This document shows, piece by piece, positions 9,464 through 62,960 of a stretch of DNA of 64,000 nt. Each line of letters begins with the position of its first letter. Positions within the stretch are counted from its first letter, which is position 1. This stretch comes from an uncultured Rikenellaceae bacterium (GTDB taxonomy: Bacteria; Bacteroidota; Bacteroidia; Bacteroidales; VadinHA17): the NCBI GenBank assembly GCA_963818525.1, contig CAWFSO010000004.1, positions 49,624 to 113,623 of the forward strand. The letters run 5' to 3'. The position numbers and the translations under genes were made by a program. The notes under the pieces are model-generated. The model was not told where the DNA came from. It saw only the letters and a program-made list of their open reading frames with translations, and did no database searches.

Positions 9464-9467
9464 CCTT

Positions 9468-10397
9468 TCAGAAATACCTTGGCGATGTTGCACTAACGGA
9501 GTACTCGAACTCATATCTCAGTGACACCTCATGGGTACCCGAGGTGTAGCTGTTCAGGTGACCAAGCTGGTAATCAAAGGAATAACCCAGCTTAAGCTGA
9601 GGTGTGACCTGAAGGTCAAGAAGCGCCACTGCCGCCTTCTCGGCGATCCTGTAGGAACCTCCAATCCAGAGTATGTCAGCGATGATCAGGTTTGCATTCA
9701 GATCCATCTCCAGAGGCTCTGACATTGAATACCGGACAAGCACCGAGGGCTTGACCTTGAAAGCGTCGGAAAAACTAATCAGGGTTCCGGTCAGAAAGTA
9801 AGTCTTGAACATCATGAAATCAGGGGAGACACCTGAATCATTCGACGCATCACTCTGGTACGTAAGAATTGAAGGCACCGACAATCCGGCAAAGAACCTG
9901 TTTGTGTAATAGTAAAATCCTGCACCGATATTGGGCATTGTGTATCGAATGTCTCCCACAAGCAGCGGATCCTGAGGATTGCCGTCAGGGAACTGGAGGT
10001 TGTTGTAATTTGTGTTGCTGAGGTCGACGCCTCCCTTGAGACCCATGGAGAGTCTGCCTTTTCCCAGGCGGACGCTATAGGCATAGAATCCATAAAGCCC
10101 TATATCCTTTGTTACCCCGTAGGTCATGTATTCAGCCACAAACCCCAGTGCTACCTTTTCACGCTTGTTAACAGGGCTGTGCAGCGACAGGTTCTGGAAC
10201 TGCGGTGCACCAACAATTTTAGCCCACTGTTTACGGTATGAGAGGTTGGCGCTGAGAGCACCGCGCGTGCCGGCGTAGGCCGGATTGATAATAAGCCCGT
10301 TGGTCAGATACTGGCTCGTAATGGGCGTTTGCTGTGCCATAAGAGCCTGCTGAAGAGCGACTGCCAGAATGAGTAGTATGAATGACTTTCCTTTCAT
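9468..10397 (-). CDS. Type IX secretion system membrane protein, PorP/SprF family
   Basis: 309 aa. After the signal peptide comes the family N-terminus QQTPITSQYLTNGLIINPAYAG. The body looks like a beta-barrel and ends in an aromatic residue (SPRYF). Confidence 0.85.
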   Translation of the reverse strand: MKGKSFILLILAVALQQALMAQQTPITSQYLTNGLIINPAYAGTRGALSANLSYRKQWAKIVGAPQFQNLSLHSPVNKREKVALGFVAEYMTYGVTKDIGLYGFYAYSVRLGKGRLSMGLKGGVDLSNTNYNNLQFPDGNPQDPLLVGDIRYTMPNIGAGFYYYTNRFFAGLSVPSILTYQSDASNDSGVSPDFMMFKTYFLTGTLISFSDAFKVKPSVLVRYSMSEPLEMDLNANLIIADILWIGGSYRIAEKAAVALLDLQVTPQLKLGYSFDYQLGHLNSYTSGTHEVSLRYEFEYSVSATSPRYF

Positions 10398-10398
10398 G

Positions 10399-14010: not shown

Positions 14011-14068
14011 TTTAAGAGTCGTGGTTTGCTAATATATATTGTAATAACTGAAAATCTGCCGGATTATT

Positions 14069-17000
14069 TTAGGTACTCTTGCTGCTGTTGCGTTCAACGG
14101 TGTAGAGAAGTGGAAGTTCAACCGTAAAGGTGGTTCCGCTATCATGCTCAGTATCAAATGATATCGTCCCGCCGGCAGTCTCCACATAACGCTTGACAAT
14201 TGAGAGTCCAAGCCCCATTCCTGACGATTTTGTGGTAAAATTAGGTGTGAACATCTTCGGGATCAGTTCATCGCGGATACCGGTTCCGTTGTCAATGAAC
14301 TTTATCTTTACCCTGTCAATGGTTTCCGTAACAACAATCCTTATCTCTCCCTTTCTGTCGGAAGGGATAGCCTGCATGGCGTTCTTGAGGAGATTGGAGA
14401 ATATTCCGTTAAGATGTTCCCTGTCAGCCATCACAATGGCCTTGCTGATGTTGCCGGTCTCAAGGGTTATAGTTGCATGCTCGGTGTTGCCGAACATGCC
14501 AAGGGTGGTCCTTAGCTGTGCAAGCACATCAATTTCGGCAGGCTCGGGCCCGGGCAGCCTCGCGAAATAGGAGAAGGCTGAAGCAATGTTTGACAGGTTG
14601 TCAATATATTCGATCTGGTTATCAGTGAAGCTCCTCAGTTTAGCGTCAAAATCAGGCACCTTGTCGTTCCACCATTTGAACAGCTGCTGTACGTTAAGCT
14701 TCATCGGTGTAAGCGGATTCTTAATCTCGTGGGCGATCTGCCTGGCCATCTCACGCCATGCCATCTCCCGCTCGGTGCGGGCCAGCTTGCTGGCGCTCTC
14801 CTCAAGCTCGTCAGTCATGCGGTTATACTGTCTGACCAGCTCACCCACCTCATCGCGGCTGCTGTATGTGATGTGCTCGTTCTTCTTCCCGTATACCACT
14901 GAGCTCATCGCCTGCTGAAGCATGTAAAGGGGAGAGGTTATCCTCTCACTCAGGAAGACCGCAACCCACATCATCACCACCAGGAATAGCAGCGTGAAAT
15001 TAATAAGTGTCACCACAAGATTGGAGACCTCCCTGGTGAGCAGATTCTGCATCTCAAAATATGGCACATTGAGATAGGCCAGCAGCTCATTCTCTTCATT
15101 GTAGAAGGGGAGGTATGCCGAAAGATAACCAAGTCCGCCAATGGTCTCCTCACCAATATATTCCTCCTTTCCTGCTACTGTAAGCACACCATAGGCGACA
15201 GGATCCATCATGCTGCCTTCGAGACTCCTGGCAAAGACCTCGGGACGTGATGTGGCCAGCAACCTTCCGGAGGGAGAATAAAGATTTATATCAGTGAAAA
15301 ACACATTTGAGAACTTCACAAGCAGATGGTTCAGTGTAGGATAATCCGCCGCCTGCCACCCGTCTTCGAGCGTCTCCTCGGATGAGAGCTTGTGTTCCAG
15401 CTCGATGGAAAGCGAGGTGGCTTTTTCACGTAATACCCTTGTGTGATTGGTTCTGAACTGCCTTGTGCTCAGCATCAGGGCTCCCGCAATGATAATTATG
15501 AACACAACCGACAGAACGGCTGCAAATGACAGCTGGAGCCTTCTCCGGAAGGTATTGAAGTTCAGCAGCTCTGCAGGATGCCGGGTAAAGATGATCAGCA
15601 CAGCAAACGAATAGAGCAGTATTACTATGAAAAGATAGGCAAACGTGATGACCCTCTCCATCAGTGTTACTGATGCGGTGGTCAGGGCAAGGGTCATCTC
15701 TCCGCGATTATAATAGAGGTGCTTGTACCCGTTGGTTCTTGCAAATCTGTACTCATCACCCCCCTCCTGCTCCGGGGTGAACTGGTTATCATAGGGATAA
15801 TCGCCTGACCTCAGCATCAGTATCCCGCCGGAGTATTTTGCATATGAGATATCCTTGAGCTTCGGAAAGCGCTGGTGCGTACCGTCCAGCAATAGCTCGG
15901 GATACCCCGAGAGATATGTTTCAATATGACTCACCAGCTCAATAAACAGCCCGTTGGTGACCTGGGGAGATACTTCATAAAAAATCCTTGAGAAATACCA
16001 GGCACGGCCCGTCTGGTTATTCATGAACCAGAAACCGGTACCGGTAATGGTGTCACCCTCAGTCTTAACCCTGTTGTCAAACCAGGCGAAGCAATTCTCG
16101 GCCGATGATCCCGTTGAAGCAAGGGCCAGGGGTGAATCACTGCTGCATATAACAATGTTGAGATCATAGTTCTCCCAGTAGCCGTTGAAATAGTTATCCT
16201 CCAGGTACCTGAAGACCATGTTGGTCTCAGCTGGAGAGATCCTTTCCCTGCTGATAATTCCTGAAAGGAGGGTGTCATTTTGCAGTTTTGGCCACATGTC
16301 AATAAGCATCCCTTCAGCTACCATATCATTGTCATTTGCCAGGGATATTGCCATGACCTTCATGTGCCTGTCCTCCTTGACATCGGAAAATCTCAATACC
16401 AGTGCCGTGGCAAAGATCCCTGTCAGTATCGAGAACAGGATTATCAGTGACACCTCCGAATAAGATCTCCTCTGCCACAGGATAACCGCCAGAAAGAGCA
16501 GCAGCACGTAAAGGATGCCCCATCCGGTGCATCCTGTACCTGGCATGCATGCCACCGGCAGCACCAGCGCCGCCAGTGCGGCCACTGCGAGGTTCGTCTT
16601 TAGCGGCCACTCCTTCATCATCCTTCCGGCCTTCAGGAACAGTATCATCGGTACCGTCAGCAGCAGCATGACAGCGATGAAACCGGCGAGGCTCATAAAA
16701 CTCATATCGAGGATCTTGAATGCCTCAAAGCTGATTGCCGAATTGAGCACCAGGTCTTTGAATAATGCCTCACCGGTGACGAAGAAAATAAATCCTGCAG
16801 CAATCATTGAGGCCGGCGCAGCAAGCCTCCTGAATCCCTGTCCGTTCCACGGCGAGTTGAATGATCCGCTCCTGAAAAGGAGTTTCAGTCCTGAGACAAT
16901 CAGGAGCCCAAGCAGCATCGCATGCCCCACCGACGGTATCAGGGGGCCTGCTGACCACAGGAACGGTGAAAAAAGCTCTGTAGACCTCACTGATGGCGGC

Positions 17001-17794
17001 ACACCTGTCAGCAGGACAACCGCATAAATGAGAATAAGCGCAACAAATGCCAGCAGAATGGAAAGGGCTTCGCTGACCTTCCGGCCAAAGTGCCCTGTGC
17101 CAAGAACCACCAGTCTGACAAGCAGGAACAGAAAGATAAACCAGAGGAGAACAGGTATTATTATGAAGACCGTGTTGGGCTTTTTCTCAGGAAAAACCAG
17201 TCCGAAGTGATATTCATCTTCTGACCCCATGACCCGGAATTCCGAGGCAGCCTCATCAAAAGTGATCCGCGTTAAGGCAGGCAGCCAGTATGGCTCTGTA
17301 AAGCCAGTTCTGAGAAGGTTGTTGACGATGGGATACTGCCTGTAGACCTTTATCAGTGCCAGCATTTCATACTGACCTGACTCCCTGTGCACCGGGATAA
17401 ACCATTTGTTGCTGAAAAAGATCGGTTTATGAGTGTCAAAACGGTCTTCATAAGTAACAGGAAAGTCAATGCTGTTAGTTGACCAGTAGGCAATCTTCCC
17501 CTGGTCATAAATAAGGATTGTAATACCCTCCTCCTCAGCGTTGCTGCCGGTGCTGTTGCGGAACATGACTGAGGGGTCACCAGCCTCCTCAACCTGCTTC
17601 ACGACTTCATCAAGCAGAAGAGCCGCGCCCTTTTCCTGGTCAGAAAGCATGGCATCAAGACGTGATGTCCTGAACCGCCACTCCAGGTCACTGAAATAAA
17701 TCTTGTCGGCCACGATGGCCAGAGCGGCAACGATAAGCAGGGTTACGATTACGACCCTGAGATTCTTCAGTCTTCCCGGCATAATATCATTCAT
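14069..17794 (-). CDS. Large polytopic sensor histidine kinase (orphan)
   Basis: 1241 aa with many predicted TM helices in the N-terminal ~750 aa. It has a HAMP-like linker, the H-box AHEIKNPLTPM, the N-box NLLKNAMQA, G1 DNGTGI and G2 GMGLGLSIVK. No response regulator gene is adjacent. Confidence 0.85.
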   Translation of the reverse strand: MNDIMPGRLKNLRVVIVTLLIVAALAIVADKIYFSDLEWRFRTSRLDAMLSDQEKGAALLLDEVVKQVEEAGDPSVMFRNSTGSNAEEEGITILIYDQGKIAYWSTNSIDFPVTYEDRFDTHKPIFFSNKWFIPVHRESGQYEMLALIKVYRQYPIVNNLLRTGFTEPYWLPALTRITFDEAASEFRVMGSEDEYHFGLVFPEKKPNTVFIIIPVLLWFIFLFLLVRLVVLGTGHFGRKVSEALSILLAFVALILIYAVVLLTGVPPSVRSTELFSPFLWSAGPLIPSVGHAMLLGLLIVSGLKLLFRSGSFNSPWNGQGFRRLAAPASMIAAGFIFFVTGEALFKDLVLNSAISFEAFKILDMSFMSLAGFIAVMLLLTVPMILFLKAGRMMKEWPLKTNLAVAALAALVLPVACMPGTGCTGWGILYVLLLFLAVILWQRRSYSEVSLIILFSILTGIFATALVLRFSDVKEDRHMKVMAISLANDNDMVAEGMLIDMWPKLQNDTLLSGIISRERISPAETNMVFRYLEDNYFNGYWENYDLNIVICSSDSPLALASTGSSAENCFAWFDNRVKTEGDTITGTGFWFMNNQTGRAWYFSRIFYEVSPQVTNGLFIELVSHIETYLSGYPELLLDGTHQRFPKLKDISYAKYSGGILMLRSGDYPYDNQFTPEQEGGDEYRFARTNGYKHLYYNRGEMTLALTTASVTLMERVITFAYLFIVILLYSFAVLIIFTRHPAELLNFNTFRRRLQLSFAAVLSVVFIIIIAGALMLSTRQFRTNHTRVLREKATSLSIELEHKLSSEETLEDGWQAADYPTLNHLLVKFSNVFFTDINLYSPSGRLLATSRPEVFARSLEGSMMDPVAYGVLTVAGKEEYIGEETIGGLGYLSAYLPFYNEENELLAYLNVPYFEMQNLLTREVSNLVVTLINFTLLFLVVMMWVAVFLSERITSPLYMLQQAMSSVVYGKKNEHITYSSRDEVGELVRQYNRMTDELEESASKLARTEREMAWREMARQIAHEIKNPLTPMKLNVQQLFKWWNDKVPDFDAKLRSFTDNQIEYIDNLSNIASAFSYFARLPGPEPAEIDVLAQLRTTLGMFGNTEHATITLETGNISKAIVMADREHLNGIFSNLLKNAMQAIPSDRKGEIRIVVTETIDRVKIKFIDNGTGIRDELIPKMFTPNFTTKSSGMGLGLSIVKRYVETAGGTISFDTEHDSGTTFTVELPLLYTVERNSSKST

Positions 17795-18260
17795 GATGAT
17801 ACGGGTCGCCGGCTATAACCGACAATACCCTGTAAATCTGTTCTGCGAACAATAATCGTACCACCTGGTGTGAAAAGGTGAGCTTGGAGAGGGAAACAAT
17901 ATGATCTGCCCTGGTCCGGACAGAAGGGTCAAAACCCCATGGTCCGCCTACGACAAACACTATTCGTTTTTTTGGTAATGACATCGTTGTGCGCAACCAG
18001 GAGGCCATCTCCACCGTCGAGTAACTCCTGCCCTGCTCATCAAGCAGAACCACATGGTCATCACTCTTAATGACCGATAGCATCTTCTCCGCCTCCTTAG
18101 CCATCACCTTTTCTGCATATCTGTTGCCGGGGTTTTTGACGTCAGGAAGGGTGATGATCTCAAAGCGGGCATATTTTGAAATTCTCTTTTCATATTCCGC
18201 TACGCCTTCCCTTATCCAGGCCTTGTCAGTCTTTCCTGTAAGCAGGAGAACCAGCTTCAT
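17787..18260 (-). CDS. rlmH: 23S rRNA (pseudouridine1915-N3)-methyltransferase RlmH
   Basis: SPOUT-family sequence (MKLVLLLTGKT...VFVVGGPWGFDPSV...LSLSKLTFSHQVVRLLFAEQIYR). I trimmed the ORF to the internal Met, which gives the typical ~157 aa length. Confidence 0.88.
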   Translation of the reverse strand: MKLVLLLTGKTDKAWIREGVAEYEKRISKYARFEIITLPDVKNPGNRYAEKVMAKEAEKMLSVIKSDDHVVLLDEQGRSYSTVEMASWLRTTMSLPKKRIVFVVGGPWGFDPSVRTRADHIVSLSKLTFSHQVVRLLFAEQIYRVLSVIAGDPYHHE

Positions 18261-18409
18261 TAATTCATCCCGGTTTGTTGAGTAAGGCAAATATAGCAAT
18301 TAAGGCCTTAAAACTCAGTTGCTGATGCGCAGAATTAAAAGTGGTTCGGTTTTTGATAATAATAGTTAAATTTGCTATGTCCTTAAATGTGTCGCATAAA
18401 GGAACTGAA

Positions 18410-18811
18410 ATGAGAAAGAAATTAACAGCGGCAGCCGGGGTACTCTTCATCATTGTATCCCTGCTTGCAGCACAGGAGGAGCCCAGGATACCTTCGGGTA
18501 TCACAATAGCCTTCCGTTCAGGAAGCGCTGCCGGGCTCTCCGAATACCTGAACAGCACCGTTGAGCTGGTTCTGCCTGACAAGGAGGACTTTTACAGCAA
18601 GAGTGTCGCCGAGACCATCCTGAAGGATTTCTTCAGCCGTCACCGCTCCCGTGAGTTCGTCATAAAACACCAGGGCGCCAAGGGTGACGCACAGTATGCC
18701 ATTGCCAGCCTTGAAACTGACAAGGGGCGCTTCCGCGTATACTTCCTGTTAAAGAAGGTCGATGGCAACCCGCTTATACACCAGATAAGGATAGAACCAG
18801 ATAATGAGTGA
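18410..18811 (+). CDS. Small secreted protein resembling the DUF4783 family often found next to nadC in Bacteroidota
   Basis: The ORF is trimmed to MRKKLTAAAGVLFIIVSLLAAQ (signal peptide). Its 3' end overlaps the nadC start. The family assignment is from memory of the sequence pattern only. Confidence 0.55.
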   Translation: MRKKLTAAAGVLFIIVSLLAAQEEPRIPSGITIAFRSGSAAGLSEYLNSTVELVLPDKEDFYSKSVAETILKDFFSRHRSREFVIKHQGAKGDAQYAIASLETDKGRFRVYFLLKKVDGNPLIHQIRIEPDNE

Positions 18812-19646
18812 TCCCGGCTTCCGGTCATTTATTCTTAATGCTCTCGCTGAAGATACTGGCAGCGGAGACCACAGCTCGATTGCATCAATCACTGCCTCAG
18901 TTAAAGGCCGTGCCAGGCTCCTTGTAAAAGAGAGCGGCATCATCGCCGGCCTGAGCGTTGCACGTGAAATATTCAGCATCACCGATCCTTCGCTTGAGAC
19001 AGTTCTCCTCCTGAAAGACGGCGATAGCGTCAAATACGGAGATATAGCTCTGACAGTTGCCGGCAGCGTGCATTCAATACTGAGAGCTGAGAGGCTGGTA
19101 CTCAATGTAATGCAGCGGATGAGCGGCATAGCCACTGCCACGGCAACATATGTAGAAAGAGTCAGCGGGACCAAAGCACGCATAACGGATACACGCAAGA
19201 CAACACCCGGGATGCGGGCCCTCGAGAAGGAAGCCGTGCGCCTGGGAGGAGGAGTCAACCACCGGATGGGACTCTATGACATGATCATGCTCAAGGATAA
19301 CCACATCGATTACGCAGGCGGGATAACGGCGGCGGTCAAACGTACGCAGGAGTATCTCATCAGGCAAAACCTGCCTCTCAGGATAGAGGTGGAATCACGC
19401 AATATAGATGAGGTAAGGGAGATACTGGCTGTGGGCGGGGTCGACCGCATCATGCTCGACAATTTTGACATTCCCTCCACCAGGGAGGCCGTTGAACTTA
19501 TCGGCGACAGGGCGGAGACGGAATCATCAGGCGGCATCACCCTGGCAAACGTGAGGGAGTATGCACTGTGCGGCGTCGACTATATATCAATCGGGGCTTT
19601 GACCCACCACATAAAAAGCCTTGACATGAGCCTGAAAGCATATTAA
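18804..19646 (+). CDS. nadC: Nicotinate-nucleotide pyrophosphorylase (quinolinate phosphoribosyltransferase)
   Basis: 280 aa with typical NadC blocks: ALAEDTGSGDHSS, RAERLVLNVMQRMSGIAT, DTRKTTPGMRALEKEAVRLGGGVNHR, LKDNHI and SSGGITLANVREYALCGVDYISIGALTH. Confidence 0.92.
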   Translation: MSDPGFRSFILNALAEDTGSGDHSSIASITASVKGRARLLVKESGIIAGLSVAREIFSITDPSLETVLLLKDGDSVKYGDIALTVAGSVHSILRAERLVLNVMQRMSGIATATATYVERVSGTKARITDTRKTTPGMRALEKEAVRLGGGVNHRMGLYDMIMLKDNHIDYAGGITAAVKRTQEYLIRQNLPLRIEVESRNIDEVREILAVGGVDRIMLDNFDIPSTREAVELIGDRAETESSGGITLANVREYALCGVDYISIGALTHHIKSLDMSLKAY

Positions 19647-27530: not shown

Positions 27531-28764
27531 ATGAAACGGGGTCTGCTGATAATTATTCTTACTGTCTCGCTGTGCGGCATAGTGTCTGCACAGTCGGAAT
27601 TCATGAACGGCTACATCATCAAAAAGGATGGAAGCTACACATACGGCCAGTTGAAATACATATCAAAAGGCTACACGGCGAAGGAGTGCCTCTTCAGGTG
27701 GTTTGACATCTCAACCGAGCACCTCTTTCTGCCCGGAGATATTGAAGCATTCGGCTTCACCCACGGCATGAGGTACAAGTCTGTATTTAACGTGGGAGGA
27801 AAAATTTTCATGGCATGTCTTACTGACGGAGAACTCGATCTGCTCTATGACGGATCAAGGATGTATCTTGACGGGATGGGCATTGACATAGTGCCACTGG
27901 GAAACAATGCCGGCAGTTTCATTGCAGACGGGGAGATGGTGAGCTACAGCGACTACAGGGATCTGCTTGAAAAGCTTCCGGACCCGGACAACAAATTCTC
28001 TGTGCCATCTGACATCTCCCTGAATCCTGAAAAAATGGCGGAGGTGATAGCCTCCTACAATAGCAGTCGTGAGCGTAAAGGCGACGGTATTCGCTCTGAA
28101 GAACCCGTCAGGAGTGTATGAGGAGATGCGCAACCTGGGTGCATTCATGAGCAATTACGGGGTGCTGGCCGGAATGATCGCATCAAGGTACGATGCTGAA
28201 AAAGTAAACTACAGCCATCTGGGATTCGTGCCGGAGATGGATTTCTTTGAGGTGACGCCTCTCTTTGGCCTCTGGTACAACCGGCCGCTGACCAGGAAAA
28301 AAGACTATATCTCCGCCCAGGGAGAGATAATGGTATTTACGACAAATGTTTACATGTATGACGAAAGAGAAACTTCTTACGTCACACAGAGAAGCGACAT
28401 CAATCTGAGCTACACCGGAATTAAAGTGCCCCTCTTTTTAAGGGTCAGCCTCCTCGAAGGGAGTGTTAAGCCTTTCTTCAGCGCCGGTGGCTTCGCGATG
28501 TTCAACCTGGGTGCTCAATATTCAAGGGAGGGAGAGAATGAGGATTATTTTCACGTCGTCAGGCCATTCACAGACAACTCCATTATTCTTAACACGTCGA
28601 TGTTTGGCGCCCTGGCAGGAGTCGGTGTCAAAAAGGAGCTCAGCCCTAAAAAGAGCTTCTCCCTGGAGTTCAGGGCCGAATACGGCTCAGGTATTTACGA
28701 CAGGGAAGGCATAAATCAGAAGACCATCAGCTTCAATCTCATCGCCGGATTTGATTTTCTCTGA
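27531..28764 (+). pseudogene. Probable single outer-membrane beta-barrel gene split by a frameshift (ORFs 27531..28121 and 28069..28764)
   Basis: The first ORF has a signal peptide (LLIIILTVSLCGIVSAQ). The second lacks one, starts at GTG and ends with a barrel-type terminal strand (ISFNLIAGFDFL). The second frame is open from 28051, and the two ORFs overlap by 53 nt. Confidence 0.45.
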
Positions 28765-28980
28765 TTTTTGCCGGAGACTTACTGGCTTACCGGTGGCTGA
28801 TTCACCCAGGGAAAATAAGGGATTACCTGTCGTGCAGATCGTGCATTGCCCGTACCAGAAATAATAGTTTGTCTGAGGTGCTGGTCCTGAACTGAATGCT
28901 GAGGCAATGATTTCTAATCTGCAATGCTTATCCTGCATTGCCGGCATCCAATAATGGCTTCCTGCAGCCCGGATCGTACC

Positions 28981-30483
28981 CTACCCGCAGTGGAGGTATT
29001 CCTTAACCAGCCGGGCTATCGCCTCGTTGTTGCCGTAGAGTTCCTCACTCAGGCTCTTGTCATTGTATGACTTCAGCTTTGCAGCCAGGTTGTCTATCAC
29101 ACCTGCCGGGAAGATGCCGTCCTTCTCAAAATGGTGACGCAGGCTGAGCAGGGCATCTGCCGAATCCCAGCACGAAGCGGGAAGTGACTCGAGCTTCCTG
29201 GCCTCGGCCTTCGTCTTCTCCTTGAAAATATTGTAGTTGACATATAGCCTTTCTGCCATCTCGAGGGCACCCGGCATCTCAAGACCGTGCTGTATGGCCA
29301 CGGCTATGCCTGCCATCAGCATGTAGATGTCGGCCGAGCCGTCAGGAGAACGGAGCTCCACGGTCTGCCTTGATATCTTGTCTGCCACGCCTGCCGGCTC
29401 GGCCGGATTGGCATCATGGATCATCTGCGACGCACCCAGCCACCCCAGCGGTACCCTCACAAGCACCGACCGGTTGCGGTCGCCCCAGCAGATGTTCGTG
29501 GGGGCCTCCTGGTGCGGCACCAGCCTCAGGTAAGAGGTCGGTATGGTGTTGCCGAAGGCGGTCAGCCCCTTGCTCAGATCGAGGATACCGGCGATCATTT
29601 TCCGTGCGGTGTCACTCAGTTTTCCGTTTTCAATCATTATGTTGCGGCCATCCTTCTCCAGCATCAGGTGGATATGCATCCCCGAGCCGGCCTTCCCTAC
29701 TGTAATCTTCGGCGCGAAGCTGATCTCCACACCGTACTTATAACCCAGCATCCGCAGTATCCACTTGGCAATTATTATCTGTTCAACGGCCTCATCAAGC
29801 GGCACATGCAGGAACTCAATCTCATGCTGTTCGTAGTCGTCGCCGTCCTTCGAGAAGCTCCCTACCTCAGAGTGTCCGTACTTGATATGGCACCCTGCCC
29901 GCGCACACAGCTCCAGAGCCTCCACGCGCAGATCCTCGAACTTGGCAAAAGGCTTCGACTGATGATATCCCTTCTGGTCAAAAAGAGGATAGAGCTTGTC
30001 GCTCTCCGACCTGACGTAGTATTCAAGCTCTCCCAGGGCCCTGATGGTGTAGCCCGTGGCGGCAGAAAACCTCTGTATCGCTTTGCGTAGTATATATTCC
30101 GGAGAGCTCTCCAGGGGCTTCCCTTCAGAATTGTAAAACGAACAGAGGATCTCAAGAGTCGGCGTCTGGGCGAAGGGATTGACAAAGGCGGTGCGGTACC
30201 GTGGCATGACATAGAGGTCACTGGAACCGGCCTCAATGAACGAAAAGAGGCTGGAGCCGTCAACACGCTCGCCGGCGGTGAGAATGGAAGCAAGGTGATC
30301 ACGGCTGTAGGGCACGAAATTCAGCGACTTGAGCTTGCCGTCGCCGGCAGCATACCTGAAGTTGACCATCCTGATGCCCTTGGCCTCGATGAACCTGATG
30401 ATGTCTTCGGAGGTGAACTGGTCTGCCGGCTTCCTGAGAAACTGCACAAGCTCGTTGCGGCTCATAAGTATATCATTGTTCAT
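28981..30483 (-). CDS. Glutamine synthetase-family protein (glutamate-ammonia ligase-like, ~500 aa form)
   Basis: The ORF is trimmed to the MNNDILMSRNEL start. It has a beta-grasp N-domain (IRMVNFRYAAGDGKLKSLNF) and a catalytic region with GELEYYV, HSEVGSF, GSGMHIHLML and LRLVPHQEAP. Confidence 0.75.
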   Translation of the reverse strand: MNNDILMSRNELVQFLRKPADQFTSEDIIRFIEAKGIRMVNFRYAAGDGKLKSLNFVPYSRDHLASILTAGERVDGSSLFSFIEAGSSDLYVMPRYRTAFVNPFAQTPTLEILCSFYNSEGKPLESSPEYILRKAIQRFSAATGYTIRALGELEYYVRSESDKLYPLFDQKGYHQSKPFAKFEDLRVEALELCARAGCHIKYGHSEVGSFSKDGDDYEQHEIEFLHVPLDEAVEQIIIAKWILRMLGYKYGVEISFAPKITVGKAGSGMHIHLMLEKDGRNIMIENGKLSDTARKMIAGILDLSKGLTAFGNTIPTSYLRLVPHQEAPTNICWGDRNRSVLVRVPLGWLGASQMIHDANPAEPAGVADKISRQTVELRSPDGSADIYMLMAGIAVAIQHGLEMPGALEMAERLYVNYNIFKEKTKAEARKLESLPASCWDSADALLSLRHHFEKDGIFPAGVIDNLAAKLKSYNDKSLSEELYGNNEAIARLVKEYLHCG

Positions 30484-30626
30484 TATTTGCTGCTTTTTAA
30501 TGATGGGCAAATCTAAAAATTTCCGGATACAAAAAACAACACCTTTGTCATTATTGAATTTACTATTATGCCGTCCGGGGCATGTTGTCGTTTTTTTTCT
30601 AATTTTGGTCCGCACAACGGACCCGG

Positions 30627-31925
30627 ATGAAAAGACTGCTCTTCATTGCCGCTATTATTGTTCTCTCGTCATGCCACAGGGATGAGGGACTGGCCTGGTT
30701 TTCCGCCGGGAAGGCTGCCGAGTATTTCAGGCTGACAGAGGAGGTGTGCAATAATGACAACGGAAAGCTCTGGGGCGAGAACCTCTACGGGCCCGCAATG
30801 TATGTCGACAACCTCAACAGGGCAATATATGCCAATGTGGCCGACAAGGAGAACATTCTGAAAGCCCGCGAGGGGGTCTTCACCGGAGTGCTGCCCAAAG
30901 AGAGGATCATAACCAACAACGTGATCGAGTTCGGAGGTGTCAGGTACGCCATGGTGCCTCTTCCCGAAACGGAAGACCGTTACCGGATGGTCACCCGCAC
31001 AGTCCACAGCCTCTTCCACAGCTACCAGGAGAGGCATGTGCTTAAGCCCTCGACCTTCAGCACAAGACATCTGAACGACAAAAATGCGAGGCTCTATCTT
31101 AAGCTCGAGTGGAAAGCCCTGACCTACGCCATCGGCTCCTCCGGGGAGACGCGCAACCAGGCAATACGCGATGCGCTGGTCTTCCGCGGCGCCAGGCGCG
31201 AGCTCTTCCCTGAAGCTATTGCAGATGAGAACAAGTTTGAGAACTACGAGGGACTGACCACCTTCACCTATATTAAACTATGCACCTCCGGTCCCGATGA
31301 GCTGAAAAAGCGGATACTCGAATATCTTGACAGGATCTACCAGAACAACTCATACGCATGGGGATACGGGTTTGTGCACGGAGCTCTCTATGCCACCCTT
31401 CTTAACGACAAGGACTTCGACTTCAAACAGATACAGGAGTCAGACTTTGACCTGGGCAAGGCCGCGCTGGAGGCTTACGGTGTTACGCTGCCTGCCGTGT
31501 GCCGCGACGTTGCAGGATCGCTTGCGATGAACTATGACATACAGGCCATCAGGGCGGAAGAGAGCGAGCGCGAGGCGATGATCAATGAGAACACCCGCCG
31601 GATAGTGACGACATTCAATGAGAAGCCCGTTGTGACAATAACCATGGAGAGCCCGAACTTCAGCTTTGAGCCCGAGGATATCAACTTCCTCGATACCCTC
31701 GGCACCCTGTATGAGAAGCTCCGCGTGTCAGACAACTGGGGGAGGCTGGCAGTCAATGAGGGAGGCGCCCTCCTGACAAACGACCTTCATACGCTGAGGG
31801 TCAGTGCCAGGGATATTGTTGTGGATAAAAACCACATCTCCGGCGCCGGATGGCACCTGGTTCTCAACGACGGATGGCATGCCGTAGCCGAAGCCGACGG
31901 CAGTTATACGGTCACAAAAAATTAA
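30627..31925 (+). CDS. Hypothetical lipoprotein
   Basis: 432 aa with signal peptide and lipobox (IIVLSSCHRD). I recognise no family. Confidence 0.55.
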   Translation: MKRLLFIAAIIVLSSCHRDEGLAWFSAGKAAEYFRLTEEVCNNDNGKLWGENLYGPAMYVDNLNRAIYANVADKENILKAREGVFTGVLPKERIITNNVIEFGGVRYAMVPLPETEDRYRMVTRTVHSLFHSYQERHVLKPSTFSTRHLNDKNARLYLKLEWKALTYAIGSSGETRNQAIRDALVFRGARRELFPEAIADENKFENYEGLTTFTYIKLCTSGPDELKKRILEYLDRIYQNNSYAWGYGFVHGALYATLLNDKDFDFKQIQESDFDLGKAALEAYGVTLPAVCRDVAGSLAMNYDIQAIRAEESEREAMINENTRRIVTTFNEKPVVTITMESPNFSFEPEDINFLDTLGTLYEKLRVSDNWGRLAVNEGGALLTNDLHTLRVSARDIVVDKNHISGAGWHLVLNDGWHAVAEADGSYTVTKN

Positions 31926-39403: not shown

Positions 39404-39620
39404 TCTTCTTGATGTTGCAAGCTTAATATTATTAAGTCCGGCTCGTTTTAACGTAAAAATCATTTTTAGCGGGCCATGTTTATTTTATAAACCTTCCGGC
39501 AATGTTTTCAACATATCGTTAAGCCTCCTGCATTAAAACAAGCCAGCGGATAAAGTTGCGCAAACTTTCTTCATTTGGGCACTTCCATATTTCGGCACTT
39601 CTGCTTAAATTGCAGAGACA

Positions 39621-41612
39621 ATGTCGTGCCCTATGACCAGAATTGACCCGGTAAAGAATTACGAAAAGACCAGAGAGGAGATCGGTTATGTCAGCCGTAA
39701 GGAGGCGACGCTTAATGATTATAAGCGGATAGGGTTCAAATCGGGTCTCGAGGTGCATCAGCAGCTCAGGACGAAGAGCAAGCTCTTCTGCCGCTGCCCG
39801 GCAGGGATATTCCACGGTCACAACGAATACGATGCGGAGGTTGTACGTCATATGAGGCCCACCCTCAGCGAGATGGGCATCTATGACGGCACCGCACTTA
39901 TGGAGTTCAGGACACGCAAGGAGATCACCTACCGCCTCAATAACCAGACTGCATGTACCTATGAAGTAGATGACACTCCCCCCTTCCCCATTGATCACGA
40001 AGCGCTGGAGATAGCCATCAGCATAGCCCTGGCAGCCAAAATGAACATCGTGGGCGAGGTGCACATCACCAGGAAACAGTACCTCGACGGCAGCATCCCG
40101 ACAGGCTTCCAGCGGTCTGCCATAATCAGCGTGGAGGGCGATCTGCAGCTTAAAAACAAGAAGGTACGGCTTATACAACTGAGCCTCGAGGAGGATTCGT
40201 GCCGCGAGGTCTCAGACATCGGCCATAAGAGAATATACAAGACAGACAGGCTCGGCATGCCGCTGATAGAAACGGTGACCTACCCCGATTGCCTCACACC
40301 CGACGAGCTTGCTGAAGCTGCCGAATATATCCGTTTCCTCAACCGCAGCACCGGCATGGTGCGCACCGGCATGGGAGCGGCACGCGAGGATGTGAATGTC
40401 AGCTGTGAGGGCGGAAGCAGGGTCGAGATAAAAGGGGTGGCACACATAAAGTGGATCCCCGAACTCTCTCATAACGAAGCCTTCAGGCAGTATGCCCTGC
40501 TGAATATACGTAGCAAGCTGCAGAAGATGATCGCCGATCCTTCTGCATGGTCGCTGAAAACCAAAGAGATAACGGAAAAGGACTGCCAGTTTCATTTTGC
40601 TCCGGTGCGTTCAGCCCTCGACCGCGGTGAGAAGGTCATGGCAGTGAACATTCCGGGCTGCAGGGGCATCCTCTCCCACTTCACCCAGCCGGAACATGTC
40701 TTTGCAGATGAACTGAGCGACAGGCTGAAGGTCATAGCCTGCATTGAGAAGCCCAATATGATACACTCGGAAGAGATCGGTGAAACCAACTTCAACAGCC
40801 TCTTCCCCGAGGTGGCCATCTGGCTCTCGGCAGCACCGGATGACGCACAGGTAATACTGTGGGGCCCTGAAGAGGATATCCCGACAGCCATAGAGACCAT
40901 CGACGAACGCATACGCCTGGCTCTCAACGAGGTGCCAAACGAGACACGCAAGGCCTTTGAGGACGGGACCACGATGTTCGAACGGGTCCTCCCCGGACGT
41001 GACCGCATGTATCCTGATACCGATTCCCAGCCGATACCTGTTACAACTGAGATGCTGGAGCGACTGGGACGCAACCTTCCCGTGGACATCGCTCTGCGCT
41101 TCCGCCAGATGAAGGATTGGGGTATACCTGAGGATGCATGGCACTACCTGCTCAGCAAAAACCTGGTCGGAGTGATTGAAAGGATCGGCAATGACCTGGG
41201 TTTTGACCACCGCGAGGTGGGTACAATAATAGGACACCGCTTCCGCAGCCTGGAGGGACGCGGCAGGGTGTCGAAAGGGTTCAGCTATGAGAAACTGTAC
41301 GACCTGTTCGCCTTCCTGAAAAGCGAGGAGCTGCTGCCACCCGTGGCCCGGATCATGCTTCCCGGCGTTGTCGCCTCAGCCGAACCTGACTTCAAACAGA
41401 TCCTGGCTGACACCGGGTACGCACCGGCATCCCTGGGGGAGATAAGGTCCGGCGTGAAAGAGCTCGGGAAGAGATTCGAAGAAATTTGCTACAACGGCAA
41501 CAGCGCAGCAGCAGTCGACTGGGTCATGGGACAGATTCGCATGAAAGCCATCGGTAAGCACAGGCTGGCTGAGGTACGAAAAGAGGTGTCTGATATTCTG
41601 GAGGTAAAATAA
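39621..41612 (+). CDS. gatE: Glutamyl-tRNA(Gln) amidotransferase subunit E, archaeal type
   Basis: 663 aa. The N-terminus GFKSGLEVHQQLRTKSKLFCRCPA is the GatE signature, not the GatB GLEVHVxL. Further blocks are RHMRPTLSEMG, YEVDDTPPFP and RKQYLDGSIPTGFQRSAII. It lies directly upstream of gatD. Confidence 0.85.
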   Translation: MSCPMTRIDPVKNYEKTREEIGYVSRKEATLNDYKRIGFKSGLEVHQQLRTKSKLFCRCPAGIFHGHNEYDAEVVRHMRPTLSEMGIYDGTALMEFRTRKEITYRLNNQTACTYEVDDTPPFPIDHEALEIAISIALAAKMNIVGEVHITRKQYLDGSIPTGFQRSAIISVEGDLQLKNKKVRLIQLSLEEDSCREVSDIGHKRIYKTDRLGMPLIETVTYPDCLTPDELAEAAEYIRFLNRSTGMVRTGMGAAREDVNVSCEGGSRVEIKGVAHIKWIPELSHNEAFRQYALLNIRSKLQKMIADPSAWSLKTKEITEKDCQFHFAPVRSALDRGEKVMAVNIPGCRGILSHFTQPEHVFADELSDRLKVIACIEKPNMIHSEEIGETNFNSLFPEVAIWLSAAPDDAQVILWGPEEDIPTAIETIDERIRLALNEVPNETRKAFEDGTTMFERVLPGRDRMYPDTDSQPIPVTTEMLERLGRNLPVDIALRFRQMKDWGIPEDAWHYLLSKNLVGVIERIGNDLGFDHREVGTIIGHRFRSLEGRGRVSKGFSYEKLYDLFAFLKSEELLPPVARIMLPGVVASAEPDFKQILADTGYAPASLGEIRSGVKELGKRFEEICYNGNSAAAVDWVMGQIRMKAIGKHRLAEVRKEVSDILEVK

Positions 41613-41667: not shown

Positions 41668-43059
41668 ATGGCAATGACAGAAGATTTTTTTCAGGGTTAC
41701 AAGGGCGAAGCGCTGGCAGTGCTCAAAAAGTACAACGTCAGGGTATGGGGCCAGGCTGATATCGAGACTACGCGCGGCCTCTTCAAGGGTACCGTCCTGC
41801 CCAGGGCGGAGAACAATGACGACCTCCACATAGTAATTAAGATTGAGAGCGGGTACAATGTAGGCATTGACATAACCACCGTCATCAGGATGACGGAGAC
41901 AGGCTATAAGAAAGCCAACTACCAGATCCCTGAAAAAGCATTCCCCTACTCCGATGACAAGCCCACGGTGAAGCTCCTGGGCACCGGCGGCACCATCGCC
42001 TCGAGGCTCGACTACCGCACCGGTGCCGTGATACCTGCTTTTTCGCCGGGCGAGCTCTACGGCGCTGTGCCCGAGCTGGCCGACGTGTGTAACATTCACA
42101 CCGAGAAGCTCTTTGGTGTCTTCAGTGAGAATATGGGTCCTGATCAGTATATGACCCTCGCCAGAGCAATCGGAAAGGAGATAGAGGGCGGTATTGACGG
42201 CATTGTTATCGGCCATGGCACAGACACGCTGCACCATACCGCCGCCGCACTCTCATTCATGATACAGAAGCCCCCGGTGCCGATCATTCTGGTGGGTTCA
42301 CAGCGTTCATCCGACAGGCCTTCGTCAGATGCCGCACTTAACCTGATACACGCTGCAACGGCGGCAGGTCACGGTGACATCGCCGAGGTGATGGTCTGCA
42401 TGTTCGGCCCCACGAGCGATGAGTACGGCTTCCTGCACCGCGGCACAAGGGTGCGCAAGATGCACAGCTCGTACAGATCGACCTTCAGGACCATAGGCGA
42501 CATACCCATAGCTACCGTCAGGCGCGGAGAGGTGAAGCCCATGAAGCCGCATTACAACCCGCGCCGCAATGACCGCAATGTCACAATCATGCCCTACTTC
42601 AACGAGAATGTGACGATGATCTATTTTTATCCCCACATGAAGGTCGAAATGTTCCATTCGCTCATCGACATGGGGTACAAGGGCATAATTATAGTTGGGA
42701 CGGGACTGGGACATGTGAACAGGGAGCTCTATCCGGCCATTGAGCGCGCGCAGAAGGAGAATGTGGCGGTATATATGACGCTTCAGACTATCTGGGGATA
42801 TGTGCATATGTTCGTCTACGAGACCGGCCGCGACATGATGGCGAAAGGTGTCATCCCGCTCGGGAACATGTTGCCGGAGGTGGCCTGGGCGAAGCTGGGA
42901 TGGGCGCTGGGGCAGACCGATGACCTCGGGGAGGTCAGGAAGATCATGTTAACCCCGGTGGTTGATGAGATCACAGAGCGCGAGCCCTATAACGGCTACC
43001 TGGTATACCAGGGCGGCGTGCCGGAGGTGGAGGAATTCATTCGCCGGGTCCACAAATAA
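41668..43059 (+). CDS. gatD: Glutamyl-tRNA(Gln) amidotransferase subunit D, archaeal type (asparaginase-like)
   Basis: 463 aa. The N-terminal domain contains LHIVIKIESGYNVGIDI. The asparaginase core contains LLGTGGTIASRLDYRTGAV, VIGHGTDTLHHTA and VGSQRSSDRPSSDA. Confidence 0.85.
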   Translation: MAMTEDFFQGYKGEALAVLKKYNVRVWGQADIETTRGLFKGTVLPRAENNDDLHIVIKIESGYNVGIDITTVIRMTETGYKKANYQIPEKAFPYSDDKPTVKLLGTGGTIASRLDYRTGAVIPAFSPGELYGAVPELADVCNIHTEKLFGVFSENMGPDQYMTLARAIGKEIEGGIDGIVIGHGTDTLHHTAAALSFMIQKPPVPIILVGSQRSSDRPSSDAALNLIHAATAAGHGDIAEVMVCMFGPTSDEYGFLHRGTRVRKMHSSYRSTFRTIGDIPIATVRRGEVKPMKPHYNPRRNDRNVTIMPYFNENVTMIYFYPHMKVEMFHSLIDMGYKGIIIVGTGLGHVNRELYPAIERAQKENVAVYMTLQTIWGYVHMFVYETGRDMMAKGVIPLGNMLPEVAWAKLGWALGQTDDLGEVRKIMLTPVVDEITEREPYNGYLVYQGGVPEVEEFIRRVHK

Positions 43060-52125: not shown

Positions 52126-53210
52126 CAATTACCTCGTCAGAATTTTTTATTGCCAGTCTCCTTATGTTGTCAGAAAGTTGATTTCGCTTTGCGTCGTCAT
52201 GCACCAGTGTCAGGGCCGTATTGATGAGCGCTGTCTGTGCATCGGAGTCTCTTACCAGTATGGCGGCGCCACGGTTGACGAGGGCCATGGCATTGTGCGT
52301 CTGGTGGTCCTCAGCCACGTTGGGTGACGGCACGAGGATGACCGGCTTGCCGACCAGTGCCAGCTCGGAGATGGTACCGGCGCCGGCACGGGAGATGATG
52401 ACATCGGCGGCGGCATAGGCCAGGTCCATACGGTTTATGAAGCCTGTGACAACAGTGTTGGTCACAGCCTTCTCTTCAGCCAGCTCGCGCATCCGGTCAT
52501 AATAGTGACTGCCGGTCTGCCATATCATCTGCACACCGGATGCCTCCACCTGGCCTATGCCGCCACCGACACTGTTGTTGACCGTGCCGGCGCCGAGCGA
52601 CCCGCCCAGAACAAGTATCACCGGCATGCCTGGCTTCAGCCTGAAGTGCTCCATCGCCTCCGCCCTGAGCGCATCCAGGTTGTCATAGGCCTGCCTGACA
52701 GGATTGCCCGTCAGTATTATTTTTTCCTTCGGGAAATATTTTTCCATCCCCTCATAGGCCACGCATATCTTTTCCGCCTTCTTCGCCAGCAGCCTGTTGG
52801 TCACACCGGCATAGCTGTTCTGCTCCTGTATCAGGGTGGGTATGCGCTTCCGCTGCGCCTGCTTCAGCACCGGGCCTGAGACATATCCACCGACGCCCAC
52901 AACAACATCAGGACCGAACCTCCTGATTATCTGTGCCGACTTCATTATGCTGCGGAAGAGCTTCCATGCCACATGGAATGTTTTTGACACTGACACCGCG
53001 TACCAGTCCTGCCACCGACAGCCCCTCTATCTCGTAGCCGGCCTCGGGCACCTTCTGCATCTCCATCTTCCCGATGGCGCCGACAAACAGGATTTTCACC
53101 GCCGGCTCAATGCGCCGCAGGGCGTTGGCAATGGCAATGGCCGGGAAGAGATGCCCGCCGGTGCCGCCTCCGCTGATGATGATCCTTATATCTTTACCCT
53201 CCGCGCTCAT
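52094..53210 (-). pseudogene. murG: UDP-N-acetylglucosamine--LPS/undecaprenyl transferase MurG, interrupted by a 1-nt frameshift as assembled
   Basis: The N-terminal ORF (53210..52908) carries [17 protein letters not shown]. The C-terminal ORF (52996..52094) carries [16 protein letters not shown]...GGSLGA...SRAGAGTISE. The frames switch at an A5 run (T5 on the plus strand, 52981-52985). Confidence 0.85.
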
Positions 53211-55961: not shown

Positions 55962-57361
55962 CTATCGTATCTTCAGTGTCACCACGCTCAGCACCGCCAG
56001 TAATATGGCGACGATCCAGAATCGTGTGACTATCTTGGGTTCAGCATATCCTAGCTTCTGATAATGGTGGTGCAGCGGCGCCATGAGGAAGATGCGCCTG
56101 CCCTCGCCGTATTTGCGCTTCGTTCTCTTGAACCAGCTCACCTGTATCATGACCGACAGGCTCTCAATGAAGAAGACTCCGCACAGGATGGGTATCAGAA
56201 GCTCTTTCCTTATCACTATGGCGAAGACGGCGATGATCCCGCCGAGGGTGAGGCTGCCGGTGTCGCCCATGAAGACCTGCGCCGGGTAGGAGTTATACCA
56301 GAGGAAGCCCACCGTGGCACCGGCAAAGGCGGCGGCAAAGATCACCAGCTCGCCAATGTTAGGTAAATACATTATTTGCAGGTAGTTAGCAAAGATGACG
56401 TTACCCGAGACATATGCAAGTATGCCAAGAGTGACCCCTGCGACAGCACTTGTTCCTGTTGCCAGCCCGTCAAGGCCGTCGGTGAGGTTGACGCCGTTGG
56501 AGACGGCCACCACCACGAAGATCACCATCGCCATGAAAACCAGCCATCCGAGCAGCTGCTTCGTCTTCCCCTTGGCAAACGGAACCAGCCATGAGTAGTC
56601 GAACTCGTTATTCTTGACAAAGGGGATGGTGGTCTTGGTAGACTTGATGTTGACTGCCGTTGACTGTGGAATGATTTCTCCCGGCTGCCCTGCTGCCATA
56701 TTCCTGACACATCCGCTGATGTATCCGTTGACATCATCGAGGACATGTTCGCCGACGCCTCCATTGAGGTATCCGTAGACATGCTCTGCGAAACATTTCC
56801 CGTAAAACCCGCTGACACATCTGCATACATATCCGTCGACATATCCGCTGAAGCCACCGTAACACCTGCGGGAGCGCTGACATTGACCCTGACAACCACA
56901 TCATCACTGATATAAAGTGTCAGGGCCACGATAAGACCCAGGCCGACCTGGCCCATGATCTTGAAACGGCCGGCAAGGCCCTCCTTGTTCTTTTTGAATA
57001 TCTTGATGTAATCGTCCATGAATCCGATGAGGCCAACCCAGACAGTGGTGATGATCATAAGGATGATATAGACGTTGTCAAGCCTCGCGAAGAGAAGAAC
57101 GGGAACAAGGATGGATGCAATGATTATGATGCCACCCATCGATGGGGTGCCCTGTTTCCTGTACTGACCCTCGAGGTCGAGATTGCGTATTGTCTCTCCT
57201 ATCTGCCTGCGCTGCAGGTAGTATATCAGCCTTTTCCCGATCAGCACTGCGATTATGAGGGAGGTGATGACAGCAGCAGCAGACCTGAACGAGAGATAAT
57301 TGAATACTCCTGCTCCGGGAACGCCAAGTTCATCGAGGTATCTGAAGAGATAATACAACAT
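55962..57361 (-). pseudogene. mraY: Phospho-N-acetylmuramoyl-pentapeptide transferase MraY, with a repetitive loop insertion and a frameshift as assembled
   Basis: The N-terminal ORF (57361..56522) carries [11 protein letters not shown] and [17 protein letters not shown]. The C-terminal ORF (56699..55962) carries [40 protein letters not shown] and APLHHHY. The two are in different frames across an S/T/D/M-rich repeat segment. Confidence 0.85.
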
Positions 57362-58820: not shown

Positions 58821-59001
58821 CACTTTTTCTCAGGTCAGACACTGATCACACTCTGTTTTTTCTTGCTTTATTCATCACTTTTTCTCAGGTCAAAGACTTT
58901 GCACAAACAGTTTCTTCCTTGCTTTATTCATCACTCTTATCATGCTGCCTTGTGCCTCCATTGCTTTTTTCATCTCCTCTTTCATGCTCCCCGGTTCTCC
59001 A
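58816..59001. repeat. ftsI/murE spacer: 55-56-bp tandem repeat (2+ copies) of the murE start region, followed by shorter degenerate ATG-containing pieces
   Basis: U1 (58816-58870) reads ttcatcactttttctcaggtcagacactgatcacactctgttttttcttgctttat. U2 (58871-58926) reads ttcatcactttttctcaggtcaaagactttgcacaaacagtttcttccttgcttta. U3 begins ttcatcactcttatcatgc at 58927. Confidence 0.85.
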
Positions 59002-61403: not shown

Positions 61404-62054
61404 TTACTTGTTCACTACTATCCTGTAAGGCGGCTCGCGAAGTTCCTCGAGACCCAGTCCCCTCTCCTTAACCAGATCCGTTATCTCACTCTGGCGGCTC
61501 ACGCTGCCCAACTCTGCCGAGACCGAGAGCGCCTCCGCCCGCATATCCCTCACCTCCTGTTCAAGGACTATAATCTCGCGCTCAACACGCTCAGCATTGA
61601 ACTTATTGGCAATGAAGATGATAGCTAGCACGGCAATAAGAGCCGAGTATTTCATGTCCTTGAGAATCAGACTCTCGGAGATCAGTGTCCCGCTTATCAG
61701 CCCCTTGAATATACCCCCCTGGCTCTTTTTGCCTGAGGATTTCGGTCTGGAGGCCTGCCCTGCTCCTGACTGCCCTTCCGCTGACTGACCATCAGTTGAC
61801 TGACTGCCGACTGCTGTCCCGACACTGCGTGTTCGGGATTGATTCTCCTCCTTCGTCGGAGCATCAAACTGCCGACTGCTGACTGAGGACGGAGCATCAA
61901 ACTGCCGACCGCCGACTGCCGTCCCGACACTGCGTGTCCGGGATTGAGTCTCCTCCTTCGTCGGAGCCTCAAACTGCCTGCCTCCGGCTGAATTTTGCAG
62001 CTGTTTGATCAACTGACGGGCACTCCATCCCTCTGTGTTCCTCTCCTCTTCCAT
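61404..62054 (-). CDS. ftsL: FtsL-like cell division protein with a repetitive N-terminal extension
   Basis: 216 aa. The C-terminal half has a TM helix (YSALIAVLAIIFIANKF) plus a coiled coil (EREIIVLEQEVRDMRAEALSVSAEL), and the gene sits between rsmH and ftsI. The N-terminal ~120 aa contain GRQF(E/D)APTKEE.QSRTRSVGTAVG repeats. Confidence 0.75.
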   Translation of the reverse strand: MEEERNTEGWSARQLIKQLQNSAGGRQFEAPTKEETQSRTRSVGTAVGGRQFDAPSSVSSRQFDAPTKEENQSRTRSVGTAVGSQSTDGQSAEGQSGAGQASRPKSSGKKSQGGIFKGLISGTLISESLILKDMKYSALIAVLAIIFIANKFNAERVEREIIVLEQEVRDMRAEALSVSAELGSVSRQSEITDLVKERGLGLEELREPPYRIVVNK

Positions 62055-62059
62055 CCTCT

Positions 62060-62960
62060 TCAGATTTTCTCCGCTATCCTTAACCTTGCACTGCGTGCCC
62101 TTCTGTTTTCTGAAATCTCCTCCGGCGTTGGAACGATCACCTTGCGGTTCACAGCCTTGAACGGAGTTGACAAGTTCCCGTAGAAATCCTTGTCGCTCTC
62201 ACCCTCGAAATTGCCGGTGCGGATGAAATTCTTCACCAGCCTGTCCTCAAGCGAGTGGTATGTTATCACTGCCAGCCGGCCTCCGGGCTTCAGTACCTGA
62301 AGGGCCTGCGAGAGCATCTCCGTGAGAGCATCCAGCTCATGGTTCACCTCAATGCGTAACGACTGAAACAGCCGTGCATAAAACTTATTCTCCTCCCATG
62401 ACGGGACCAGTCCCGCAAGCGCCGACATGAGGTCACTGACGGTATTTATCGGTTTGCTTAACGCGTGCTTTGACTATGGCCGCTGCCAGCTTCCGTGAGT
62501 TGGTCAGTTCGCCGTACTTGTAAAAAACATCTGCCAGCTTCTCTTCCTCGTAAGTGCGGAGGATGTCCGATGCCCTGAGGGTCGACTGGCGGTTCATGCG
62601 CATGTCGAGTTCCGCATCGCTGCGGAAGGAGAAGCCCCTCTCCTGCTCATCGAACTGATGAAACGAGACGCCGAGATCAGCTATCAGTCCGTCGATTTCG
62701 GTTATCCCGAGGTAGCGAAGGTTGTTCTTCAGGTACCGGAAGTTCTGGTTGAGGAGGGTGAACCGTGCGTCGCTGATGCTGTTCGCTTCGGCATCGGCAT
62801 CCTGGTCAAAAGCAATGAGCCTGCCTGAGGTGAGCTGGTCGAGGATGGCGCGCGAGTGTCCTCCGCCTCCGAAGGTTACGTCGACATAAATCCCGTCGGG
62901 CCTGAGGTTTAGCCCTGCAATGCTCTCTGTCAGCAGTGCCGGGAGGTGATAAATGACCAT
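62060..62960 (-). pseudogene. rsmH: 16S rRNA (cytosine1402-N4)-methyltransferase RsmH, frameshifted as assembled
   Basis: The N-terminal ORF (62960..62433) carries VDVTFGGGGHS and DLGVSFHQFD. The C-terminal ORF (62428..62060) carries FQSLRIEVNHEL and GRLAVITYHSLEDR. The second frame read upstream gives KPINTVSDLMSALAG, which continues the family alignment. Confidence 0.85.

Follow-up and report, generated by a model that had tools for sequence, protein, structure and literature searches.

Gene organization and identity

The mraY gene of this contig poses two questions: what to make of an enzyme whose reading is split over two frames, and what to make of the long repetitive loop in which the frames change. 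The gene occupies positions 55962–57361 on the minus strand of the window, by which we mean the whole 64-kb stretch of DNA analysed, and translation of the window divides it into two parts. The N-terminal frame (56703–57361, minus strand) encodes helices 1–4, the DDYIK motif on the cytoplasmic side and the greater part of the loop, with residues 1–152 aligned to E. coli MraY residues 13–151 (E = 3.9e-85). The ORF to which this frame belongs (56522–57361) consists of 158 conserved N-terminal residues, a repetitive stretch and 59 residues of nonsense that run to a stop at 56522. This out-of-frame tail (56522–56701, minus strand; IWQQGSREK...SWRW) is not a genuine peptide segment, as its DNA, read in the other frame, is conserved MraY. 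The C-terminal frame (55962–56699, minus strand) encodes helices 5–10, the PLHHHY motif and the C-terminus VVTLKIR, with residues 259–466 aligned to E. coli residues 161–360 (E = 3.6e-66).

The two parts cover the NCBIfam profile TIGR00445 (321 positions) in a complementary manner, the N-part matching positions 2–116 and the C-part positions 122–321; the C-part by itself scores 253.2, above the cut-off of 192.05. Thus, both ORFs are halves of a single gene, and the claim of an initial annotation of this DNA, that mraY changes frame at the end of an S/T/D/M-rich loop, is borne out. The MraY proteins of relatives, used as tblastn queries, cover both parts, and no second mraY was found by this search in the 64-kb window. 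PF00953 is recorded for all close homologues of the repaired MraY.

The catalytic motifs are present and align with those of the E. coli enzyme: the Asp pair of DDxxK, the Asp of FMGDxGS and the His of HHH (APLHHHYQ). The catalytic residues of Aquifex aeolicus MraY are D117, D118, D265 and H324 (PMC4790310). On the minus strand, the dcw cluster is ordered mraZ-rsmH-ftsL-pbp-murE-mraY-murD-ftsW-murG-murC-ftsQ-ftsA-ftsZ, which places mraY between murE and murD. The protein resembles the E. coli and A. aeolicus enzymes (8G01 and 4J72) in family, order of segments, the DDY, FMGDxGS and PxHHH motifs, and dcw position. Family profile, catalytic residues and cluster position are all those of MraY; the one departure is the reading frame, which changes at 56700–56704. 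The best explanation of the locus is one normal mraY, encoding a ten-helix membrane enzyme with its active site facing the cytoplasm. Repair by one base would yield a MraY of 466 amino acids with an 80-residue loop.

Position and repeat structure of the loop

After repair, the loop comprises 80 codons (56649–56887, minus strand; VNVSAPAG...PQSTAVN) between the conserved segments DDVVVR and IKSTKTT, in good agreement with the initial estimate of ~85 codons. It connects helices 4 and 5, as placed by aligning the sequence with solved MraY structures and by the published topology. In that topology, both termini of MraY are periplasmic, and the protein has ten helices and a periplasmic β-hairpin (PMC4790310); in the solved structures, it is the loop between helices 4 and 5 that bears this hairpin. 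Since four hydrophobic helices precede the loop and the N-terminus is periplasmic, the loop lies in the periplasm, across the membrane from the catalytic Asp and His residues; the side of the membrane, which the initial annotation had wished to see settled by topology, is thereby placed. An AlphaFold2 model of the homologue P0002 that drew on 59 close homologues had low confidence (mean pLDDT 46, pTM 0.26) and was left unused.

The core of the loop (56697–56851, minus strand) is a degenerate tetrapeptide repeat of 12 nt per unit, as judged from its register, its self-identity at an offset of 12 and the occurrence of the same register in relatives. The unit is S-x-[D/N]-[M/V/T], and the repaired loop contains 20 such tetrads, giving 80 residues as in P0002. 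The recurring DNA word that gives MSTD, noted in the initial annotation, was recovered as described: the 64-kb window contains exactly three copies of the 14-nt word ATGTCNACGGATAY, all of them within the loop (56829–56842, 56769–56782 and 56721–56734), compared to ~0.10 matches expected by chance, and three copies were obtained in none of 100 shuffles. The self-identity of the loop DNA is 0.48 at offset 12, 0.43 at offset 24 and 0.49 at offset 48, versus ~0.27 at other multiples of 3. Tandem Repeats Finder, at a minimum score of 30, reported no array in the loop, because the units are too degenerate (only ~50% alike); the periodicity is instead apparent from the offset self-identity. The loop is acidic, of low complexity and essentially free of basic residues, and is probably disordered.

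The frameshift site

The two closest relatives for which DNA was fetched are L001, encoding the mraY homologue P0002 (GCA_034522515.1, a Salar de Ascotan sediment MAG), and L002, encoding P0001 (MFD04716.bin.1.53). Their DNA identity to the window is ~91% and 94–95%, respectively, and they therefore come from different strains or species. P0002, the closest homologue in the databases, has 466 amino acids, is 93% identical to the repaired MraY and aligns without gaps across its own 80-residue loop. P0001 has 490 amino acids and is 90% identical; its loop of 104 residues contains six more tetrads than that of the window. Both share with the window the gene order and the S/T/D/M tetrapeptide repeat in the same register, but, unlike in the window, their mraY is in frame.

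Comparison with these relatives confines the frame switch to ~5 nt (56700–56704, minus strand), where DNA alignments show the window to be one base short: it has CAG-GAATATG where the relatives have CAGCAAACATG and CGGCAAACATG, or, at the switch itself, G-GAATATG versus GCAAACATG in the two closest relatives. In the three-way DNA alignment, the window has GTGTCAG-GAATATGGCAGC, L001 has GTGTCGGCAAACATGTCAGC and L002 has ...TCAGCAAACATGTCAGC, so that the missing base lies within a short A run. The window consensus at the junction is GGAATATGG, with two A's at positions 56701–56702. The initial annotation had suggested one extra base at exactly this AA pair (56702–56701) as the repair, and the alignments with both relatives back it: the repaired junction peptide aligns without gaps to VSANMSAGQAGEII of P0002, and the repaired MraY is co-linear, residue by residue, with P0002 and the relatives L001 and L002. 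None of the relatives has a frame change at this position.

No slippery heptamer of the form X XXY YYZ is found in 56640–56767, and there is no homopolymer of at least 4 bases near the shift, the longest run at the site being AA. An ATG at 56699 opens the C-terminal frame right at the shift; it encodes the M of the repeat unit S-A-N-M and is present, and read through, in all relatives. The C-terminal frame, which is the -1 frame, remains open back to 56900, that is, across the whole insertion, as had been claimed. We considered this open second frame as a meaningful feature and rejected it, because the same frame contains stops inside the loop in both L001 and L002.

The broken product of 279 amino acids, which is the N-part ORF, has an entry in the representative library (P0125), whose sole source is a 166,666-bp contig. 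Neither the N-part ORF nor murD had an exact match among encoding contigs, and a protein search with the loop plus nonsense tail gave 0 matches among 5.8 billion clusters. Two scans of JGI metagenome contigs were negative, one for the junction with either two or three bases and one for a degenerate pattern of the conserved loop end.

Origin of the frame break

The break in mraY is one of three single-base events within 10 kb of the dcw cluster, all of them private to the window. In rsmH, tblastn indicates a frame change at residue 168/169 and the three-way DNA alignment shows one extra base at 62456–62460 (minus strand; GCGTTAAGC versus GCG-CAAGC). In murG, the frame changes at residues 76–80 and the extra base lies at 52975–52978 (minus strand). 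The split rsmH and murG each retain 90–97% protein identity to both relatives. Other dcw neighbours are intact, at 90–100% protein identity to L002, save an ftsL-like gene at 76%. The relatives have private frameshifts of their own in dcw genes: L001 in murD (twice), ftsQ and ftsA (L001 positions 11476–12806, 16936–17707 and 17737–19115), with murD left uncalled, and L002 in ftsZ (L002 position ~20125). Both are from long-contig MAGs, L002 from a Microflora Danica MAG and L001 from a contig labelled 'polypolish'. The Microflora Danica MAGs are Nanopore-only and received one round of Medaka polishing to cut indel errors (PMC12313526).

We consider it most probable that the frame change in mraY is an error of long-read metagenome assembly and not a property of the organism: a single base would have been lost from the consensus at 56700–56704 of an otherwise intact gene, and restoring it would return the 466-residue product. 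The initial annotation had left the choice between an indel error and a genuinely disrupted gene; the evidence clearly favours the former and speaks against the latter. Its suggestion that the indel was caused by a difficult repeat does not hold, since the units are only ~50% alike and no run of at least 4 bases is present; the further frameshifts lie in the non-repetitive rsmH and murG, and general consensus quality, rather than the repeat, is therefore the likely cause.

The three events share with the indel errors of long-read MAGs that they are isolated, involve single bases, are private to an assembly and interrupt conserved genes; in the relatives, several occur per 20 kb. They differ from such errors in two respects. 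The mraY site has no long homopolymer, and a Nanopore-type origin is assigned to the assemblies of the relatives, not to the contig of the window. Long-read errors are most typical in long homopolymers, and the occurrence of the missing base in a run of only 2–3 A's thus counts against an artefact. For the remaining ~46 kb of the window, the ORF map and ORF adjacency, together with Pfam coverage of 30 ORFs (full-length domain matches throughout), disclosed no frameshift, by an approach that is less sensitive than comparison to near-identical relatives; the three indels in 10 kb are therefore somewhat clustered.

It is unlikely that the one-base deletion is real, in the sense that mraY was very recently inactivated in the strain or in a sub-population, or that MraY is produced as two chains. 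In favour of this reading, the gene is broken as it stands in the window, at a site without a long homopolymer, with an ATG that starts the C-terminal frame directly at the shift, and a long, probably unstructured loop would be the likeliest place for a membrane protein to tolerate a split. However, the same 10 kb also contains the broken murG and rsmH, and two essential steps of wall synthesis would then have been lost or split together while the other dcw genes stayed intact; loss of MraY and MurG with intact murE, murD, ftsW, murC and PBP is not credible as biology. The ATG is merely the methionine of a repeat unit, the N-terminal fragment would bear a 59-residue, arginine-rich nonsense tail, and the broken product is known from a single contig. 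Moreover, the downstream half of mraY has no sign of relaxed constraint: dN/dS after the break is 0.043 relative to L001 and 0.074 relative to L002, compared to 0.060 and 0.065, respectively, before it. In its particular form of a split MraY, this reading is very improbable: one polypeptide would hold helices 1–4 and the loop, the other would begin again at the ATG at 56699 and hold helices 5–10, and both would assemble in the membrane, the length and disorder of the periplasmic loop rendering the split tolerable.

A programmed change of frame, whether by -1 ribosomal frameshifting, by transcriptional slippage or by phase variation that toggles MraY, is the least probable of all and is largely refuted: a shift of -1 is indeed what is required, and the loop has no stop in the second frame, but every relative is in frame here, the relatives do not share this openness, no advantage is obvious in turning an essential enzyme off, and neither a slippery heptamer conserved in the relatives, as -1 frameshifting would use, nor a long homopolymer (none of at least 4 bases) or exact short tandem repeat, as slipped-strand contingency would use, is found at the shift, so that programmed frameshifting and phase variation lack a substrate.

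Length variation of the loop in the lineage

Independently of the frame break, which most probably stems from the assembly, the loop varies in length. Among the 120 best hits, it ranges from 32 to 113 residues; the baseline of 32 residues is found in only 21 of the 108 best hits in which the loop could be delimited, with the rest extending up to 113. The claim that the expansion is unusual consequently stands in one comparison and fails in another: it is true relative to E. coli MraY, where 9 residues (152–160) occupy the place of 106 residues of the query (153–258) in the periplasmic segment joining helices 4 and 5, and untrue inside the lineage. Approximately 50–58 residues of the excess over E. 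coli are common to the 418-residue Bacteroidales forms, while a further 48 represent the clade-specific repeat expansion. The initial annotation had reasoned that orthologues with the same long loop would make the insertion a feature of the lineage. Alignment of the orthologues sized the loop at 80 residues in P0002 and 104 in P0001, of the same repeat type, and by that reasoning the long loop is a lineage feature and not a local oddity. A set of 80 species representatives delimits it further: expansions occur only among the 13 with at least 80% identity to the query, and the 67 with at most 77% identity have 410–420 amino acids, mostly 418, and are unexpanded.

Differences in length extend to very close relatives. 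The flanks of P0001 and P0003 match at all 386 residues, yet their loops measure 104 and 44 residues, and among pairs whose flanks are 97–100% identical, loop length diverges by as much as 66 residues. At the DNA level, L083 and L002 are 98.3% identical around mraY, with loops of 44 and 104 residues (a difference of 180 nt); the loop of L083 is viewed with some caution, because L083 is a low-coverage short-read contig. The S/T/D-type alleles measure 40, 40, 44, 44, 52, 80, 80 and 104 residues, all multiples of 4, which is consistent with the gain and loss of 12-nt units. Other expansions are unrelated in sequence to the S/T/D/M tetrads, consisting of 17-residue units derived from the distal flank or of A/E/P-rich units; expansions have therefore arisen several times. 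A, G, E, T, S and D abound in the variable cores, K and R are scarce there, and the cores are net acidic in all long alleles examined. Methionine accounts for 14% of the variable core of the window.

We conclude that, in this Bacteroidales clade, the periplasmic connection between helices 4 and 5 is a permissive site, which has repeatedly grown and shrunk through gain and loss of short units. In the sub-lineage of the window, the unit is the 12 nt encoding S-x-[D/N]-[M/V/T], producing a low-complexity stretch far from the catalytic residues, and the number of units may change by slippage or unequal recombination. The loop drifts in length and is probably functionally neutral.

Alternatively, the loop could be a selected, fast-evolving periplasmic surface that evades antagonists acting in the periplasm, binds metal through Met and Asp, or serves as a spacer, a proposal that is independent of the cause of the frameshift. 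We regard it as improbable, and it has no positive support. Its appeal lies in the strain-level differences in length and sequence on otherwise identical proteins, in the independent origin of unrelated expansion types at one spot within one clade, in the net acidity of the long alleles examined and in the methionine content of the window's core. These features have to be set against the low complexity of the loop, which has no motif conserved across alleles, and against the 32-residue baseline, which suffices in 21 of 108 close relatives; neutral slippage, in turn, predicts the observed change in multiples of the repeat unit. MxxM and MxM motifs are few. The Bacteroidota O-glycosylation sequon, D-[S/T]-[A/I/L/V/M/T], is absent from the S/T/D-type loops, namely those of the window, P0001, P0002, P0003 and P0007, and is present in only 11 of 109 loops overall.

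Insertions at the same site are also found in distant lineages. In P0124, P0187, P0198 and P0205, 164–174 residues separate DDxxK from xPFxK (window, 130; E. coli, 47), and the insertion, ~115–125 residues beyond E. coli, is found after helix 4 and before the conserved xPFxK strand. These inserts are longer than that of the window and, unlike it, contain no short degenerate repeats; from their sequences, they appear to be folded or helical, charged, and coiled-coil-like or mixed. Insertions between helices 4 and 5 are thus not peculiar to the clade of the window.

Other features of the window

Several observations outside mraY are recorded here in their own right. Within the dcw cluster, the ftsL-like gene (61404–62198, minus strand), whose 76% identity to L002 compares with 90–100% for its neighbours, differs by many indels in a G/Q/S-rich stretch, which is another fast-changing low-complexity segment of the cluster. 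The spacer between the PBP gene and murE (~58857–58966) is purine-rich and aligns to L002 with many gaps; the L002 spacer appears to hold additional GAGGAATA / GATGAAAAA-like units.

GatE (39609–41609, plus strand) scores 380.6 versus the NCBIfam equivalog cut-off of 319.55 (TIGR00134), and the adjoining GatD (41668–43056, plus strand) scores 484.8 versus a cut-off of 324 (TIGR02153). Together they correspond to a Glu-tRNA(Gln) amidotransferase of archaeal type. GatDE is commonly considered an archaeal enzyme, and its presence on a Bacteroidales contig may merit a separate look. The region 8021–14028 (minus strand) has a type IX secretion context, in which a PorP/SprF-family gene (9471–10406) is flanked by a PKD/PD40 protein and by a 1209-residue protein with a CHU_C sorting domain. 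Finally, a 97-codon open frame (28690–28980, minus strand) directly follows the stop of the glutamine synthetase gene (28984–30642, minus strand) in the same frame, probably by chance.

Implications

For annotation, mraY, rsmH and murG are best taken as intact genes with consensus errors, and their breaks are not evidence for a loss of cell-wall synthesis in the organism. For the family, a literature search found no description of MraY loop length variation in Bacteroidales, and proteins with such loops are already public under the ordinary MraY name. MraY is an essential enzyme and antibiotic target that is otherwise extremely conserved; in one clade of uncultured Bacteroidales from sediment and soil, its loop between helices 4 and 5 is a free-running, length-variable site down to the level of strains. 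The tolerance of this site for large insertions could help in the tagging or engineering of MraY.
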